From assembly GCA_945901155.1 (NCBI GenBank), contig CAMDKO010000003.1:848-64847 (forward strand): a DNA stretch of 64,000 bases, written 5' to 3'. Under the pieces are notes generated by a model. The model was not told where the DNA came from. It made no database searches and worked only from the letters and a program-made list of their open reading frames with translations. The DNA comes from Pedobacter schmidteae (lineage in GTDB: Bacteria; Bacteroidota; Bacteroidia; Sphingobacteriales; Sphingobacteriaceae). Each line of letters opens with the position of its first letter. The stretch's first letter is position 1. The translations under genes and the position numbers were made by a program. Positions 1,138 through 58,698 of the stretch are shown piece after piece.

Positions 1138-3312
1138 ATGTCATCTTTAAGATTTCAAGCACTAAATGCAGTACTTTCAAGGACAATTCCTGAAGTAAAA
1201 ATGCCTTCAACCAAACTTTCTGATTTTTATGGAAGTAATGTCTTCGATCAGAAGAAAATGAAAGATAGTTTATCTAAAGAAGCCTTTAGCAGTATTATTG
1301 ATTCGATTAATTCGGGAACTCCAATTGATAGAGGTATCTCAGAACAAGTTGCATCTTCTATGAAATCATGGGCTATGTCTAGAGGAGCATCACATTATAC
1401 GCATTGGTTCCAGCCATTAACAGGAAGCACAGCAGAAAAGCATGACTCTTTCTTTGAGCCAGGTTCTGATGGTCAAGGTTTAGAGAAATTCTCTGGTGAA
1501 GCCTTATCGCAACAAGAACCAGATGCATCAAGTTTTCCAAACGGAGGCATAAGAAGCACATTTGAAGCACGTGGTTATACTGCATGGGATCCATCATCAC
1601 CAGCATTTATCATCGGATCTACCTTGTGTATTCCTACAGTATTTATTTCTTATACCGGCGAGGCCTTAGATTATAAGGCTCCTTTATTAAAGGCTATTGG
1701 TTTAATGGATAAAGCAGCTGTTGCTGTTGCACAATACTTTGATAAAAGCATTGAAAAAATTAATAGCTCATTAGGTATCGAGCAGGAATATTTTCTTGTT
1801 GATCTTGCCTTATTTAATGCTAGACCCGACCTTTATCTTACCGGAAGAGCTTTATTTGGTCACATGTCTGCTAAAAATCAGCAATTAGATGACCATTATT
1901 TTGGATCAATTCCTGAACGTGTTCTTGCCTACATGCAAGATTTTGAAACGGAAGCCATCAAATTGGGTATTCCTTTAAAAACCCGTCATAATGAGGTTGC
2001 TCCTTCTCAATTTGAGTGTGCACCTTTATATGAGGAAATGAATCTTGCCATTGACCATAACTCTTTGTTAATGGACTTAATGGATAAAGTTGCCCGCAGA
2101 CATAACTTCAAAGTTCTTTTGCATGAAAAGCCTTATGCAGGTATCAATGGTTCAGGTAAACACAATAACTGGTCATTAATTACGAATACTGGTAAAAACC
2201 TGCTTTCGCCTGGAAAAACTCCAAAAAACAATTTGATGTTCCTTACATTCTTTGTCAATACGATCAGAGCAGTTTTTGAATATTCAGATCTTTTAAGAGC
2301 ATCTATTGCATCTGTCAATAATGATCACCGTTTAGGTGCTAATGAAGCTCCACCAGCAATCATCTCTATGTTCCTTGGAAGTCAGCTGAATGACCTGCTA
2401 GATGAAATTGAATCGTCAAGGGTAACCAACAAGATGAAGCAAGAGCCATCATTATGGACTAATATTCCAAAAATACCACAGATCTTATTGGACAACACCG
2501 ATCGTAACCGTACTTCACCATTAGCTTTTACAGGTAATAAATTTGAATTACGCGCAGTTGGATCTTCGGCTAACTCTGCCAATCCAATGACAATATTGAA
2601 CACGATCATTGCAGATCAGTTAAATAAATTCAAGGCAGAAGTTGATAAACTGATCAAAAAAGGCGAGAAAAAAGATGTTGCGATCATGACAGTGATCAAA
2701 CGTTACATCAAAGAATCTAAAGCTATTCGTTTTGAAGGCAATGGTTATAGCGATGAGTGGGCCGAAGAAGCTAAAAAAAGAGGATTGTCAAATATCAAAA
2801 CTACGCCAAAAGCGCTTGATGTTTTATTGGATCCTAAAACAGATAAATTATTTCAAGATACCGGAGTATTCAGCAAACGCGAATCACATGCACGTCATGA
2901 AATACTGTTAGAAAGTTATTTCAAAAAACTTCAGATTGAAGCAAGAGTAATGGGTGACCTGGTTGATAATGTGATTATTCCAACAGCGATCAATTATCAA
3001 ACAACTCTTATTGATAACGTAAAAGGCCTTAAAGATCTTGGCTTGGGCGAAGATACCTATGCCGCTCAGCTTGATATCATCAAGATGATATCAGGGCATG
3101 TTAACTTTATCAGAACAGCAAACATTGAAATGGTTAATGAACGTAAAAAAGCGAATAATATCGAAGATATAAGAGATAAATCTATTGCCTACGATGAGAA
3201 AGTTAAATCATTCTTTGATCCAATCCGCTATCATGTTGATAAACTTGAGCAATTAGTAGACGATTCAAAATGGCCTTTGCCTAAATTCAGAGAGTTATTG
3301 TTTCTGAAGTAG
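1138..3312 (+). CDS. glnA: Glutamine synthetase type III
   Basis: 724 aa; HYTHWFQPLTG, QEPDASSFP, RHNEVAPSQFE, GSGKHNNWS and DRNRTSP motifs of GSIII. Confidence 0.96.
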   Translation: MSSLRFQALNAVLSRTIPEVKMPSTKLSDFYGSNVFDQKKMKDSLSKEAFSSIIDSINSGTPIDRGISEQVASSMKSWAMSRGASHYTHWFQPLTGSTAEKHDSFFEPGSDGQGLEKFSGEALSQQEPDASSFPNGGIRSTFEARGYTAWDPSSPAFIIGSTLCIPTVFISYTGEALDYKAPLLKAIGLMDKAAVAVAQYFDKSIEKINSSLGIEQEYFLVDLALFNARPDLYLTGRALFGHMSAKNQQLDDHYFGSIPERVLAYMQDFETEAIKLGIPLKTRHNEVAPSQFECAPLYEEMNLAIDHNSLLMDLMDKVARRHNFKVLLHEKPYAGINGSGKHNNWSLITNTGKNLLSPGKTPKNNLMFLTFFVNTIRAVFEYSDLLRASIASVNNDHRLGANEAPPAIISMFLGSQLNDLLDEIESSRVTNKMKQEPSLWTNIPKIPQILLDNTDRNRTSPLAFTGNKFELRAVGSSANSANPMTILNTIIADQLNKFKAEVDKLIKKGEKKDVAIMTVIKRYIKESKAIRFEGNGYSDEWAEEAKKRGLSNIKTTPKALDVLLDPKTDKLFQDTGVFSKRESHARHEILLESYFKKLQIEARVMGDLVDNVIIPTAINYQTTLIDNVKGLKDLGLGEDTYAAQLDIIKMISGHVNFIRTANIEMVNERKKANNIEDIRDKSIAYDEKVKSFFDPIRYHVDKLEQLVDDSKWPLPKFRELLFLK

Positions 3313-3509
3313 TACTGAGTACTGAGTATTGAGATATGTGACACAAAGTTCTGCTTCGGCAGAACTTTGTTGTTTATAGCCATATCTCACATCTCCAATC
3401 TCATATCTCCAATCTCATATCTCAAATCTCCAATCTCATATCTCCAATCTCATATCTCAAATCTCATATCTCATATCTCATATCTCATATCTCACATCTC
3501 AAATCTAAA
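3310..3509 (+). repeat. Heptamer array A: GAGTAYT/GAGATAT arm, UUCG hairpin, then 18 ATCTC-type units
   Basis: TAGTACT GAGTACT GAGTATT GAGATAT from 3310; 18 units (ATCTCAT/ATCTCCA/ATCTCAA/ATCTCAC/ATCTAAA) at 3384-3509. Confidence 0.95.
3343..3376 (+). terminator. Probable glnA terminator hairpin
   Basis: 12-bp perfect stem ACAAAGTTCTGC / GCAGAACTTTGT with C-UUCG-G loop and a T-rich tail. Confidence 0.7.
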
Positions 3510-16735: not shown

Positions 16736-16737
16736 AA

Positions 16738-17115
16738 AAGCAAGCTGTTCTATCGCCGTGATGCAAATCAAGGAGGAAAGTCCGGGCAACACAGAGCATT
16801 CTGCTTCCTAACAGGAAGGCTTCATGAAAATGGAGACGGAAAGTGCCACAGAAAATAAACTTCCCGCTTAGGTGGGTAAAGGTGAAAATGTGAGGTAAGA
16901 GCTCACAGTATTTTATGGCGACATAAGGTACGGTAAACCCCAGGAGTTGAAAGACCAAATAGGTTCCGGAAGCGAAGCTGCTCGTTTCCTTATGTCGCAG
17001 ATGCGACATTATCCGGAATGGGTAGGTCGTTAGACCATACAAGCAATTGTATGGCTAGATAAATGATAGAATTTCCGATTTATCGGGAAACAGAACCCGG
17101 CTTACAGGCTTGCTT
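16738..17115 (+). ncRNA. rnpB: RNase P RNA (bacterial type A)
   Basis: GAGGAAAGTCCGGG and ACAGAACCCGGCTTAC (P4 strands), GGAAAGTGCCACAGAAA, GGTAAACCCC, closing AAGCAAGC/GCTTGCTT stem and T-run. Confidence 0.97.
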
Positions 17116-17222
17116 TTTTATGAACTTAATCCCTTGAAAAGGAACCCGAAAATTTTACAGAACTTGAAAAATAAAACTAAACTGTAAAATAAGTATAGTT
17201 ATGTTTCAAAAACAAACATTTT

Positions 17223-17278
17223 AGCTTTCCGCTTTAAGCTTTATCCTTTCAGCTTTATCCTTTCAGCTTTAAGCTTTC
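17223..17278 (+). repeat. Heptamer array B: 8 units AGCTTTA/AGCTTTC/TCCTTTC/CGCTTTA
   Basis: Read directly; lies 7 nt beyond the pntB stop. Confidence 0.93.
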
Positions 17279-19066: not shown

Positions 19067-19303
19067 TGTTGATTGTTGATTAAACTTTGATCTATTAGAT
19101 TACCTGAAACTAATTACTAAAATTAATTACGAATTACTAAAACGAATTACGAATTACGAATTACCAAAACTAATTACGAATTACGAATTACCAATTACCA
19201 ATTACGAAAACTAATTACGAATTACGAATTACCTAAAACTTATTACTTATAACTTATTACTTATAACTTATTACTTATTACTTATTACTTATTACTTATT
19301 ACT
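19067..19303 (+). repeat. Heptamer array C: TGTTGAT x2, AATTAC(G/C/T) units with AAAACT spacers, then 9 TATTACT/TATAACT units
   Basis: Read directly at 19067-19080, 19098-19240 and 19241-19303; the last units lie inside the pntA1 3' end. Confidence 0.95.
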
Positions 19304-20415
19304 TCCTTCACCCTTTCATTACAAACCTCACCATTATAGGTAATACAAGTACCCTTCACCAAATCATCCTCAAAATTAAGATTGATCTGTCCTTCAGGTC
19401 CAAAGATTAACTGAAGAAAATTCAAAATATTCTTTCCATAGAGCTTACTTGCATCTGAGGGCATTGTTCCTTGAAGATTTGAATTACCTATAATGGTTAC
19501 ATTTTTATAAACCACAGTTTCACTGTCTTTAGTTTGCGTAGTGTTTCCACCAGTAGCTGATGCCAGATCAATAATAAATGACCCACTTTTCATTGAATCC
19601 AGAATACTGTCAGGTAAAAGTATTGGAGCTTTCTTGCCAGGTATTTGAGCAGTAGTGATGATCACATCTGCTTTTGAAGCAACTTCAGCAATTCGCTGCT
19701 GTTGTTTTTGCTTGTACTCTTCAGTTTGATCAACAGCATATCCACCTGCTTTTGAGGCATCAAGAGCTCCTTCAACTTCAATAAATTTAGCACCCAGACT
19801 CATGACTTCTTCCTTTACAGCGGGTCTAGTATCAAATACCTCCACTACAGCTCCTAATCTCTTAGCAGTTGCAATAGCCTGAAGACCTGCTACACCTGCT
19901 CCTAATATCATTACTTTTGCTGGTGCAATACTTCCAGCAGCGGTCATGAACATTGGGAAATATTTAGGCAACTGCATAGCAGCAAGTAATACTGCCTTAT
20001 AACCTGCAATATTTGCTTGGGAGCTAAGTATATCCATACTCTGAGCCCTGGTTGTACGGGGAAGCATATCCATACTAAAGGTTGTTAAACCTTTTGCTGC
20101 CCAATCATTAATTAATACAAAATTTGAGAGCGGACTATAAACTCCTAAAACAACAGCATTCTTTTTTATTTTTTTTAAATCATCTGTTGTAAGCAGATTT
20201 ATACTGAGCAGAATATCAGAGTTCTTCAAAACATTTTCTCTAGAGCTAAGCTCAGCACCCTGCTCTGTATATAATGAGTCGGATGCATAAGCATGGCTAC
20301 CGCAATTATGCTCTGCCAATACATGAATATTTTGTTTTTTGAGTGCCGCGATGTGCTCGGGAATTAAAGAAACCCTAGATTCTGTAGTCGGTTCGCGTAA
20401 GATGCCAATAGTCAT
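19285..20415 (-). CDS. pntA: NAD(P)+ transhydrogenase alpha subunit, NAD-binding part (alpha1)
   Basis: ESRVSLIPE, PRTTRAQSMDILSSQANIAGYKAV, FMTAAG, GAGVAGLQAIATA and TTAQIPGKKAP motifs. Confidence 0.96.
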   Translation of the reverse strand: MTIGILREPTTESRVSLIPEHIAALKKQNIHVLAEHNCGSHAYASDSLYTEQGAELSSRENVLKNSDILLSINLLTTDDLKKIKKNAVVLGVYSPLSNFVLINDWAAKGLTTFSMDMLPRTTRAQSMDILSSQANIAGYKAVLLAAMQLPKYFPMFMTAAGSIAPAKVMILGAGVAGLQAIATAKRLGAVVEVFDTRPAVKEEVMSLGAKFIEVEGALDASKAGGYAVDQTEEYKQKQQQRIAEVASKADVIITTAQIPGKKAPILLPDSILDSMKSGSFIIDLASATGGNTTQTKDSETVVYKNVTIIGNSNLQGTMPSDASKLYGKNILNFLQLIFGPEGQINLNFEDDLVKGTCITYNGEVCNERVKEVISNK

Positions 20416-56247: not shown

Positions 56248-57138
56248 ATGAAGCAAGTATTACTGATCTGTTGCCTTTTCTTTTTTTTATTTACTAAAGC
56301 TTTAGGCCAGCCTTCAGGCAATAATAACCAACAGCAATTAATTGCATTTCAGGATAGTCTGAAACAGATTAGCTATAAAATGGTTAATGACAGCATAGAA
56401 CCTGAACGGTATAATGCAAGTTACAAATTGATAAAAACTCTATTAACGGCCTTAAAAACACCTTATTCTTTCGATTTTACTTTTGATTCTGTAAAATCAA
56501 TTTCAATTCAGTCGTCGTCAGATAAACGATTTAGGATTTTTAGCTGGCATGTGATGAATAATGATGGAAGCTACAGATATTATGGAACTATCCAAATGAA
56601 TAAGCCTGATGGTAAGCTAGAATTGCTTCCATTGATTGATTATACCTCCGTTTTTAAGAACCCATCTGATAGTATTACAACTAATGATAAGTGGTTTGGT
56701 GCTCAATATTATAAAATAATTCCAGTATTAAACAATGTTCCAATTCCTTATTATGTATTGCTTGGATGGAAGGGAAACACGATTAAATCAACAAAGAAAA
56801 TCATAGAAATTCTTTATTTTAAAGATGGAAAGGCACATTTTGGGATGCCTGTATTTGATGGAGATCCAGATAATTTAGGAAAAAAGCGAATCATCTTTGA
56901 GTATGATAGAAGAGCTTCTATGTTTTTGAATGATGAGCCTACGATAAATACAATCGTTTTTGACCATCTGGCTCCACCCGATCCGAAACTAAAAGGAAAG
57001 TTTGAACTGTATGGCCCTGATTTCTCTTATGATGGATTTAAACTGGTTAATGGCCGATGGAAATTTGTACAAGACCTTGAACTAAAAAACAATCCAACAG
57101 ATCAGGATGATAACTTCAATGACCCTAAAAAGTTGTAG
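56248..57138 (+). CDS. Secreted hypothetical protein
   Basis: Long ORF with signal peptide; FRIFSW, IVFDHLAP and GPDFSYDGF; no function recognised. Confidence 0.8.
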   Translation: MKQVLLICCLFFFLFTKALGQPSGNNNQQQLIAFQDSLKQISYKMVNDSIEPERYNASYKLIKTLLTALKTPYSFDFTFDSVKSISIQSSSDKRFRIFSWHVMNNDGSYRYYGTIQMNKPDGKLELLPLIDYTSVFKNPSDSITTNDKWFGAQYYKIIPVLNNVPIPYYVLLGWKGNTIKSTKKIIEILYFKDGKAHFGMPVFDGDPDNLGKKRIIFEYDRRASMFLNDEPTINTIVFDHLAPPDPKLKGKFELYGPDFSYDGFKLVNGRWKFVQDLELKNNPTDQDDNFNDPKKL

Positions 57139-57450
57139 GTTATAGGTTGTAGGTTATAAGTTTTAAGGATAAAGCTGAAAGCTAAAAGGTGAAAGCTGAA
57201 AGCCTAATTTAGCTTCATTTCATAGTAGCACTTCAGACCTCATACTTCATACTTCAGACCTCAGACAACTGAATCAAGAGCCAAGAGCCAAGACAAAGGA
57301 TCAAAGACAAAGGACAATTCAGCGCAATTTTAAAATTTCTTGATTTTTGCCATGTTCAGACCTCAGACCTCAGACTTCAGACCTCATACCTCCGACAACA
57401 GACAACTGACAACTGACAACTGATAACAGACAACTGATAACAGATAACTA
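57131..57450 (+). repeat. Composite heptamer array E (five repeat families)
   Basis: GGTTRTA (57131-57165), AGCTGAA (to 57207), CTTCAGA/CCTCATA (about 57230-57270), CCAAGAG/CAAAGGA (57274-57316), CTCAGAC then AACTGAC/AACAGAT (57355-57450). Confidence 0.95.
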
Positions 57451-58698
57451 AGGCGATACCGCCTGCATCATCAATCCAGATATATAAGCACCATAAGTTC
57501 CTATAACATAGCCAAAAACAGCTAATAGCACTCCAATGGGAGCTAAAGAAGGGTGAAAGGCACTTGCAATTACAGGCGCAGAGGCAGGACCACCGATATT
57601 AGCCATACTACCAACCGCAAGGAAAAAGAAGGGTGTTTTAGTAAGCTTTGCAACAATAAAGATCACAATAGCATGAATCAGGATCCAAACTAAACCAACA
57701 ATAAGTATACCCGGCTTATTAAAAATAGCCATGATATTCATCTGCATACCAATTGTTGCAATCAAAACATACAGCAATACGCTTCCAATTCTTGAAGCTC
57801 CTGCTCCTTCCAGATTCCTGAGCTTGGTAAAAGAAAGTATCATACCTAAAGTTGTAGCTATTATTACTATCCAAAAAAACCCTGAAGTAAGACTAAATGC
57901 GCTTAAATAAGGTGCATTAATAGTGATCCATGGAGCAATATAATCTGCTCCGAAATGAGCAATACCTGTTATACCAAACCCAATGCCCAAAATCAAAAGA
58001 ATATCTTCCATTTTAGGAATTCTCATAATACTTTGCTGATAAGCTTCAATTTTATCTTTTATTTCAGTGACCGATTGATCATTAGCTTTTAAAAAGCTGT
58101 TGATCAGCATATTTTTACCTGCGCCAAATAGTAATAAAGCCATCCAGAGGTATGAAATGAATACATCAAGAGCCACCATGGCAGAAAATAGATCAGGGCT
58201 TGGCTTAAATATCTCATACATTGCTGCCTGGTTAGCACCCCCACCAATCCAAGTACCTGCAACGGTACTTAATCCTCTCCAAACCTCTTCAGCACCCTCA
58301 CCACCTACAATTTCAGGCGCAAACAATGAAATCAAAAAAACAGCTGCTGGACCACCTAGCATAATACTGATCGAAGCAGTTATAAACATTAAGCCTGCCT
58401 TTTTTCTTAACTTCCATATTTCACTCAAATCAAGGCTTAAAGTAAATAATACCAGACTAGCAGGTAAAAGATACCTGGATGCCATGGTATAAAGAGCGGA
58501 TGTTGTACCTGAAATAATACCCATTGAATTTAACAGGCCAGGTAGAAAATAGCAAAGCAGAATAGGTGGAATAAATGTATACAGTCTTTTAAAAAATGGA
58601 ATATTGCTTTCAGATGTCCAGAAGACCAATCCGAGAATACCCATAAGGATTCCTAATACAACTGCATCGTTCGTAATCAGGGCAGAATGATCTATCAT
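57448..58698 (-). CDS. DUF819 family membrane protein
   Basis: GTWIGGGANQAAM, GSMANIGGPASAP and GYVIGTY motifs. Confidence 0.88.
   Translation of the reverse strand: MIDHSALITNDAVVLGILMGILGLVFWTSESNIPFFKRLYTFIPPILLCYFLPGLLNSMGIISGTTSALYTMASRYLLPASLVLFTLSLDLSEIWKLRKKAGLMFITASISIMLGGPAAVFLISLFAPEIVGGEGAEEVWRGLSTVAGTWIGGGANQAAMYEIFKPSPDLFSAMVALDVFISYLWMALLLFGAGKNMLINSFLKANDQSVTEIKDKIEAYQQSIMRIPKMEDILLILGIGFGITGIAHFGADYIAPWITINAPYLSAFSLTSGFFWIVIIATTLGMILSFTKLRNLEGAGASRIGSVLLYVLIATIGMQMNIMAIFNKPGILIVGLVWILIHAIVIFIVAKLTKTPFFFLAVGSMANIGGPASAPVIASAFHPSLAPIGVLLAVFGYVIGTYGAYISGLMMQAVSP

Follow-up and report, generated by a model that had tools for sequence, protein, structure and literature searches.

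Does the spacer between two converging genes of a Daejeonella genome preserve the remains of lost genes, or is it built from repeats alone? The question is raised by array E, positions 57131–57450 of a 64,000-nt window (the whole stretch of DNA analysed, in whose coordinates positions are given) on contig C3 of a draft Daejeonella (Sphingobacteriaceae) genome of 191 contigs, labelled G000, to which all C numbers below refer. An earlier sequence-only reading took array E for two tandem cassettes, each of which had lost a gene of the TIGR02436 family, encoding the four-helix-bundle (4HB; PF05635) protein of 23S rRNA intervening sequences (IVS), and saw in a seven-codon open reading frame (ORF), MAKIKKF*, the surviving 5′ end of one of these genes. 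We instead read array E, with a probability of roughly four in five, as a gene-less mosaic of two heptamer-repeat modules from a lineage-specific dispersed system of some Daejeonella, and found no sign that the locus ever carried cargo.

Array E is the whole spacer separating the two genes and consists of eight 7-nt repeat runs surrounding two short cores, arranged as follows:

57132–57173: arm A6, about six AACCTAY-related units (GTTGTAG/GTTATAG/GTTATAA on the + strand, AACCTAC/AACCTAT on the minus strand)
57174–57204: arm A5, GCTGAAA/GCTAAAA/GGTGAAA on the + strand, four to five GCTTTCA units on the minus strand
57205–57229, minus strand: core 2, the apex motif GCTACTATGAAATGAAGCTAAATTA, with the two-codon ORF ATGAAATGA at 57223–57215
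57230–57271, minus strand: arm A4, one GTTGTCT unit, then five GARGTMT units
57272–57315, minus strand: arm A3, six units (GTCCTTT/GTCTTTG/ATCCTTT/GTCTTGG/CTCTTGG/CTCTTGA)
57316–57355, minus strand: core 1, the linker ACATGGCAAAAATCAAGAAATTTTAAAATTGCGCTGAATT, with the MAKIKKF* ORF ATGGCAAAAATCAAGAAATTTTAA at 57353–57330
57356–57392, minus strand: arm A2, five to six GARGTMT units (GAGGTCT/GAAGTCT/GAGGTAT)
57393–57449: arm A1, eight GTTATCN/GTTGTCN units on the minus strand, YAACWGA on the + strand (TAACTGA family)
56248–57138, + strand: gene of 296 aa, family unassigned
57448–58698, minus strand: DUF819 gene (PF05684, E 6e-86)

Tandem Repeats Finder (TRF) called period-7 arrays over the entire spacer. 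The TAG stop of the 296-aa gene (57136–57138) lies within the first unit of arm A6 and the DUF819 stop (57450–57448) abuts the first unit of arm A1; with both stop codons in or against the first heptamer units, the repeats leave no part of the spacer unoccupied. Sequence and TRF confirm exactly the heptamer arms, the two cores and the mini-ORF coordinates previously described, and the array structure bears out the division into two tandem modules. The longest ORF within array E has 23 aa, no PF05635 ORF lies between its arms, and a six-frame TIGR02436 search gave no match on contig C3.

Judged from its paralogues, MAKIKKF* is an accidental frame within a conserved linker that does not code for protein, and not a 4HB gene remnant. 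Core 1 is a copy of a dispersed linker (consensus GAAAAAAGCAGAAAATYTCAAATTAGCACTGAATT, then a GTCYTTG arm), of which BLAST found at least ten further copies in the genome (one each on C127, C91 and C12, two each on C51 and C40, three on C39) and additional copies in genomes G198, G201 and G232, whereas a substitution-only fuzzy search gave a single paralogue, a method artefact. A GTCYTTG/YTCTTGG arm trails every copy, and GARGTMT or GTTRTCN units precede most of them. The supposed gene start matches this linker column for column: in an alignment of 12 copies (consensus GAAAAAAGCAGnAAATTTCAAATTAGCACTGAATT) only four have an ATG, the ATGGCA of the window standing opposite CTGAAA or CAGAAA, and the TAA of the window is CAA in most copies, so that the stop is particular to a few. 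Copies with an ATG read MGKIGKLQISTKLSLIFDPLS*, MAKSNKFQNITELSFVFDPWSW... and MGKSRKLQISAELSF..., their frames running into the arm, and these longer paralogous versions of the MAKIKKF frame gave no Pfam match and no PF05635 similarity. Furthermore, AAATCAAGAAA of core 1 and TCTTGAT of arm A3 are complementary and form the only local hairpin retained in the centroid fold, and AAATCAAGAAA resembles the final purine-arm units of a 4HB cassette beside a thiolase gene (CAAAAATCAAGACAAA); the "codons" are thus best read as degenerate arm units.

The history of the locus was followed in about 30 orthologous DUF819 spacers, the closest relatives of the window's DUF819 gene being from Daejeonella and other Sphingobacteriaceae assemblies (94–97% identity). 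An intact TIGR02436-type ORF, which the idea of emptied cassettes led one to expect in related spacers, was sought in them and found in none (0 of about 30). The nearest relatives (DUF819 96–97% identical) carry one module of the form (GTTRTCN)(GARGTMT)-core 2-(GCTTTCA)(AACCTAY); there is one module in each of spacers L008, L010 and L011, three in L009, whose linker lacks an ATG, and two in the window. The extra block of the window consists of core 1, arm A3 and a GTTGTCT/GARGTMT restart and is positioned inside the GARGTMT run, and this succession of modules is seen again at C51, C40 and further loci. More distant Daejeonella spacers hold other heptamer flavours, a ~350-nt insert, a DUF559-like ORF, or only 8–40 nt. 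The insert, found in L018, L022 and L034, is non-coding, unrelated to the arrays and has inverted ends (TTGTCAACT...CCGGT / ACCGGAC...GTCAAC); short heptamer arms enclose it, as if a miniature inverted-repeat element had inserted into an array. The ORF, in L039, has 131 aa, is similar to DUF559 and very-short-patch-repair-like endonucleases, and is flanked by direct repeats of ~300 nt.

A module, as we read it, comprises a purine-rich (G-type) 7-nt run, a short conserved apex or linker, and a pyrimidine-rich (C-type) run. The basic form of the locus, which the closest relatives retain, is one imperfect palindrome, (GTTRTCN)(GARGTMT)-apex-(GCTTTCA)(AACCTAY), in which outer and inner arms may pair at ~5/7 positions; in the lineage of the window a second dispersed unit (linker, GTCYTTG/CTCTTGG arm and GTTGTCT/GARGTMT restart) has been added in the GARGTMT run. 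On this reading both mini-ORFs are fortuitous frames in degenerate repeat units and linker, and the spacer holds no coding remnant. Slippage presumably alters copy number, and whole blocks may come and go when runs that share a heptamer, within one locus or between loci, recombine or serve as templates for repair. The array may do nothing essential, since relatives have repeat-free spacers of 8–40 nt; it might fold into an imperfect hairpin where the two converging transcripts end.

The heptamer families that make up array E are the most frequent ones in the genome, where heptamer periodicity is far above chance: TRF returned 498 rows of period 7, compared with 177 of period 8 and 229 of period 9. 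The period-7 rows merge into 461 arms at ~250–280 sites, 20.8 kb in total. The GTTRTCN family, one rotation of which is the published TAACTGA unit, is the commonest of all, with ~100 arrays and 260 matches to three consecutive units; the CTTGGTT family has 28 arrays, the CTGAGGT, ATGAGGT and CAGACTT families (the type of arm A2) 48 combined, and the CAGCTTT family (the type of arm A5) 12. Composites of ~160–225 nt resembling array E were found by blastn at C40, C19, C11, C4, C88, C65, C51 and C16. Arrays of at least 40 nt occupy 33 of 284 convergent spacers, 61 of 1468 co-directional and 13 of 287 divergent ones, a ~2.7-fold enrichment in convergent spacers such as this one. Many contigs start or end in heptamer mosaics (among them C12:1–260, C39:240–480, C127:1–130 and C91:280–440) and 25 array sites were classed as "edge"; the arrays are thus a main cause of assembly breaks, and their true number is probably underestimated.

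Three points weigh against our interpretation. The genome is a draft, so that unit numbers inside the array could be mis-assembled; cargo may have been lost before the sampled relatives diverged, or the modules may derive from cassettes emptied elsewhere; and folds of array E (both strands) and of the one-module orthologue are no better than those of dinucleotide shuffles (z 0.08, −0.44, −1.1 and −1.6). Taken to its end, the first point would make the two-module layout itself an artefact of a short-read metagenome bin, as the number of contigs and their frequent ends in arrays might suggest. Since the independent genome of L009 is multi-module at the same locus, and the module order is repeated at C51 and C40, we regard this as very improbable.

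The second point bears on the genuine 4HB cassettes, for which the proposed organisation of a G-type arm, a TIGR02436 gene and a complementary C-type arm proved accurate. A six-frame TIGR02436 search identified six 4HB loci in the genome, two of them broken, and each of the six genes is preceded by a G-type heptamer run and followed by the reverse complement of that run. In the genus, 24 of 25 scored cassettes lie between complementary heptamer arms (the lone exception has direct arms), and the left and right arms of one cassette score a mean of 46.6 against each other versus 25.5 with the arms of other cassettes (25 cassettes). The number of 4HB copies ranges from 0 to 12 across 48 of 55 genomes of the genus. 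The 4HB gene is retained throughout the genus at two conserved sites, one to each side of the thiolase gene, and also at a metH/metF-like site; the flavour of the arms changes there while left and right arms remain complementary. Thiolase spacers are filled with a 4HB gene in 19 of 26 cases upstream and in most cases downstream, and the dN/dS (ratio of non-synonymous to synonymous substitution rates) of 4HB genes, ~0.10–0.12 compared with 0.03 for thiolase, indicates purifying selection. In the two broken genes of the genome (C55:3951–4271 and C122:5836–6137), one with an in-frame TAA and the other with a frameshift, the arms persist.

What an emptied cassette looks like can be read from a pair of alleles downstream of thiolase. 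In the filled allele of G198 (L140:2671–3420) a purine arm and a leader precede the 4HB ORF, after which the purine arm is repeated and a pyrimidine arm follows. The empty allele of G232 (L139:2671–2920), whose thiolase is 97% identical, lacks a 468-nt block equal to one purine arm plus leader plus ORF; its boundaries fall in direct AGAACCAAG heptamers, and the remainder of the alleles aligns base for base. Emptying therefore occurs, and it occurs cleanly between direct arm repeats without leaving a gene fragment; the same process may have added the extra block of the window. Other gene-less alleles retaining arms are L143 and L162, so that emptied cassettes do exist in the genus, as had been proposed, but the locus of array E is filled in none of its sampled relatives. 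Side by side with these, at L145, L148 and L157 downstream of thiolase, a repeat with GTCATCCTGAGTGTAACGAAGGAAC and GGTCCCTCCTGCGTCGG motifs replaces the 4HB gene and arm remnants stay.

Real stubs, for their part, are recognisable as PF05635 fragments. The last 51 codons of a 4HB gene remain in an upstream thiolase spacer of G212 (L150; PF05635 E 7.7e-7) and a 5′-truncated 4HB gene in a downstream thiolase spacer, L164, both still between arms. At C65:12290–12640 a tandem duplication of arm, ~100-nt leader and first five codons (MAESK...) precedes an intact 4HB gene, just past which the contig ends. A duplicated 5′ stub beside an intact gene, truncated genes elsewhere in the genus and heptamer arms around every 4HB gene of the genome all lend substance to the view that two cassettes here each lost a TIGR02436 gene and that MAKIKKF* is what survives of one. 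Such a history would predict a 4HB gene with the 5′ end ATGGCAAAAATCAAGAAATTT..., yet among 201 genomes of the family the back-translated MAKIKKF pattern is confined to this one site (the 200 others lack it), sampled 4HB N-termini (MAESEKRYKDLNVWQ, MHNLKELKIWKK, MQNYKDLKVW, MHKYKELKLWQK and others) are unlike it, and the 4HB ORFs flanked by GTTRTCN arms, where MAKIKKF starts had been anticipated, begin MAESEK... and are unrelated. The stub also aligns with a linker that lacks an ATG in 8 of 12 copies, its longer paralogues do not match PF05635 as real stubs do, none of the orthologous spacers has a 4HB ORF, and the single documented clean loss left no stub; a fossil gene start is accordingly highly improbable.

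A looser form of the same idea is that gene-less modules descend from emptied 4HB cassettes and spread non-autonomously, or are unoccupied landing pads. The emptied alleles L139, L143 and L162 share a purine arm, a short AT-rich core and a pyrimidine arm, core 1 plus arm A3 is similar to the purine-arm end and right arm that the emptied G232 allele retains (CAAAAATCAAGA..., ...GGCTCTTGGCTCTTGAATCA), and arrays are abundant only in 4HB-bearing genomes. In the cassette at C55:2172, a motif resembling the apex motif of arrays D and F and of C16 (TATGAAGCAGAATCTATCTC) also follows the stop codon, ahead of the C-arm. Arms of one flavour are similar by definition, however, and a search of the sequences flanking 26 cassettes and of 27 thiolase loci turned up neither core 1 nor core 2 motifs. 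Given also ~250 array sites against six genes, and a direction of descent that is not readable from these data, we consider such an origin possible but doubtful.

Core 2 is likewise a dispersed motif. CTATGAAATGAAGCTAAAT with up to three changes has ~10 copies in the genome, always with a GARGTMT run on one side and a C-type run on the other, and core 2 is also kept in the orthologous spacers L008–L011 and L028. The ATG of core 2, previously taken as the position of a cargo start codon, belongs to this apex motif: at C55:2172 the sequence TATGAAGGCAGATAGATATCTC, ~83% identical to the core of the D/F/C16 type, follows the 4HB stop codon and precedes the C-arm, so that this similar motif is 3′ of the cargo and not at its start. 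Nor do the ATGs of array E exceed chance, six being observed on the minus strand versus 6.1 expected from composition, and three of these six belong to arm units of the form GARGTAT, whose sequence necessarily includes an ATG; a fourth, in core 2 (57218, MKLN) overlaps the M-K-stop ORF. The order of a G-rich arm followed by a pyrimidine arm is identical on both strands and hence defines neither an orientation nor a direction of cargo.

Retention of ATG-AAA/AAG-stop in most of the ~10 core-2 copies and in array F could be taken to mean that M-K-stop and MAKIKKF are translated, as minigenes or leader peptides that serve in regulation. Conservation of start and stop is uninformative, however, among paralogues as recent as these copies; some lack an intact mini-ORF, either without the ATG (C117, TTTGAACTGA; L010, TTTGAAATGA) or reading on without a stop (array D and C16), and, in addition to ATGs being as frequent as composition predicts, the site is downstream of both converging genes. 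A role for these peptides is scarcely credible.

A further alternative, compatible with a mosaic of repeat modules, concerns RNA structure: array E could form a hairpin that terminates or stabilises both mRNAs at their 3′ ends or is cut there by RNase III. The outer arms score 38 against 18.3 ± 3.4 for shuffles, arm A6 being complementary to arm A1 at 5/7 positions; GTTRT pairs with AYAAC and CTGAR with YTCAG, at ~5/7 positions. The arms of module 2 score a marginal 28 (shuffles 18.7 ± 3.7) and those of module 1 score 19, hardly above shuffles (16 ± 3). The one-module orthologue folds as a single long imperfect hairpin, arrays are enriched in convergent spacers, and array A of the window forms a strong terminator-like hairpin (fold z −6.6). 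An analogy is offered by the 23S IVS of Coxiella burnetii, which has a PF05635 (S23p) ORF, RNase III-cut inverted termini and, beside its stems at the RNase III site, heptamers (GACAGAT) of variable copy number (Warrier et al. 2016, PMC4990558). Against this, the fold z-scores of array E, being like those of shuffles, leave a hairpin function thermodynamically unsupported, and a scan of array E for consensus terminators and promoters gave nothing above shuffles. Sense versus antisense G-U wobble in cassette arms showed no asymmetry (12 vs 13), relatives manage with the shorter spacers, and Rfam gave no match to array E at the gathering score (only a weak SorX hit, 18 bits, E 0.08). We therefore view a function of this kind as improbable.

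Several known repeat systems share features with the Daejeonella arrays. Repetitive extragenic palindromes (REP) and the bacterial interspersed mosaic elements (BIME) that they form in Proteobacteria, together with REP-associated tyrosine transposases (RAYT), are dispersed imperfect palindromes that make up intergenic, 3′-enriched mosaics and include a small gene flanked by inverted copies. The Daejeonella arrays are likewise dispersed palindromic mosaics, with composites at at least eight loci, a bias to 3′ ends and an associated small gene with inverted flanks (4HB), but they differ in consisting of many flavours of tandem heptamers, and no transposase is associated with them, the sole associated gene encoding a four-helix bundle without known catalytic activity. 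Cyanobacterial short tandemly repeated repetitive (STRR) sequences are intergenic heptamer simple repeats, and heptamers of the GGGAATC / GGGGAYT type have been published for Xanthomonas and Nostoc (Rehm et al. 2015, PMC4692102). These are abundant, intergenic, variable in copy number and of strand-biased composition, as are the arrays described here; the modular grammar of arm, apex and arm is undescribed for GGGAATC or STRR repeats, and the Daejeonella arrays, lacking G-tracts, have no quadruplex potential.

A close precedent is the report of heptamer arrays, including TAACTGA, as mixed intergenic direct repeats in Beggiatoaceae, Cyanobacteria and five Bacteroidetes (MacGregor 2015, PMC4679880). 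Like these, the Daejeonella arrays consist of tandem 7-nt units including YAACWGA (AACTGAT family), are intergenic with several flavours per spacer, vary in copy number among close relatives, some of which have short repeat-free spacers, and interrupt contigs. Unlike them, they run from a G-type arm through a conserved apex or linker to a C-type arm, form multi-module mosaics at ~250 sites, and co-occur with PF05635 genes, which are unmentioned in that paper. The Coxiella IVS resembles the Daejeonella system in having heptamers beside inverted termini, and the arms from which array E is built do flank real 4HB genes; array E differs from both the IVS and the 4HB cassettes in that it has no ORF, lies outside rRNA, has inner arms that appear not to be complementary and is never filled in sampled relatives. 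PF05635 genes within cas operons have been reported, with repeats unmentioned (PMC3936711), and our literature search found no description of heptamer arms linked to PF05635 genes outside rRNA or in operon spacers, nor of gene-less derivatives.

With the fossil gene start failing, nothing sets array E itself apart from the rest of its repeat family; it is of value because it shows, in good resolution, how these little-studied heptamer arrays are constructed and change among close relatives. A wider and more speculative proposal, which we think unlikely, is that gene-less heptamer mosaics and 4HB cassettes are two states of one system, in which a 4HB pentamer would recognise or maintain the arrays, genes and gene-less blocks would enter and leave arrays by same-heptamer homology without a transposase, and array E would be non-autonomous or unoccupied. 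It is prompted by arms that stay complementary as flavour changes at conserved sites, by the 4HB dN/dS of ~0.1 together with the filled and empty alleles bounded by direct heptamers, and by the fact that 4HB-less genomes carry only background period-7 arrays. More specifically, TRF on 180–400 kb samples of five 4HB-less genomes (G132, G102, G209, G118 and G233) gave 0–24 arrays per Mb, counting those of at least 3.5 copies, and period 7 did not outnumber periods 8 or 9, compared with 114 per Mb in this genome and 160 per Mb in G063, both 4HB-bearing; resting on five genomes versus two, without phylogenetic correction, this co-occurrence is suggestive only. Runs of three consecutive GTTRTCN units number 0–500 per genome in the genus and are lacking in 23 of 55 genomes. 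The filled and empty allele pair, the truncated genes as a reference for real stubs, and the co-occurrence of arrays and 4HB genes bear on two old questions, the role of 23S rRNA IVS proteins and the origin of bacterial heptamer repeats, both of which the cultured strains D. lutea DSM 22385 and D. rubra DSM 24536 would make testable.

Further heptamer arrays are present elsewhere in the window. Array A (3311–3506) has G-type AGTACTG/GAGATAT units and 18 CATATCT/CAAATCT units surrounding a perfect 12-bp hairpin with a TTCG loop, which is likely a terminator between two co-directional genes. An RNase P RNA was identified at 16737–17120 (Rfam RF00010, 263 bits), with a CTTTCAG/CTTTATC array at 17219–17277, ~100 nt downstream of it. 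Finally, the spacer of two small membrane-protein genes on the minus strand is taken up by AATTACG and ACTTATT heptamers (19067–19304, ~240 nt), which show a higher-order period of 27–41 nt.

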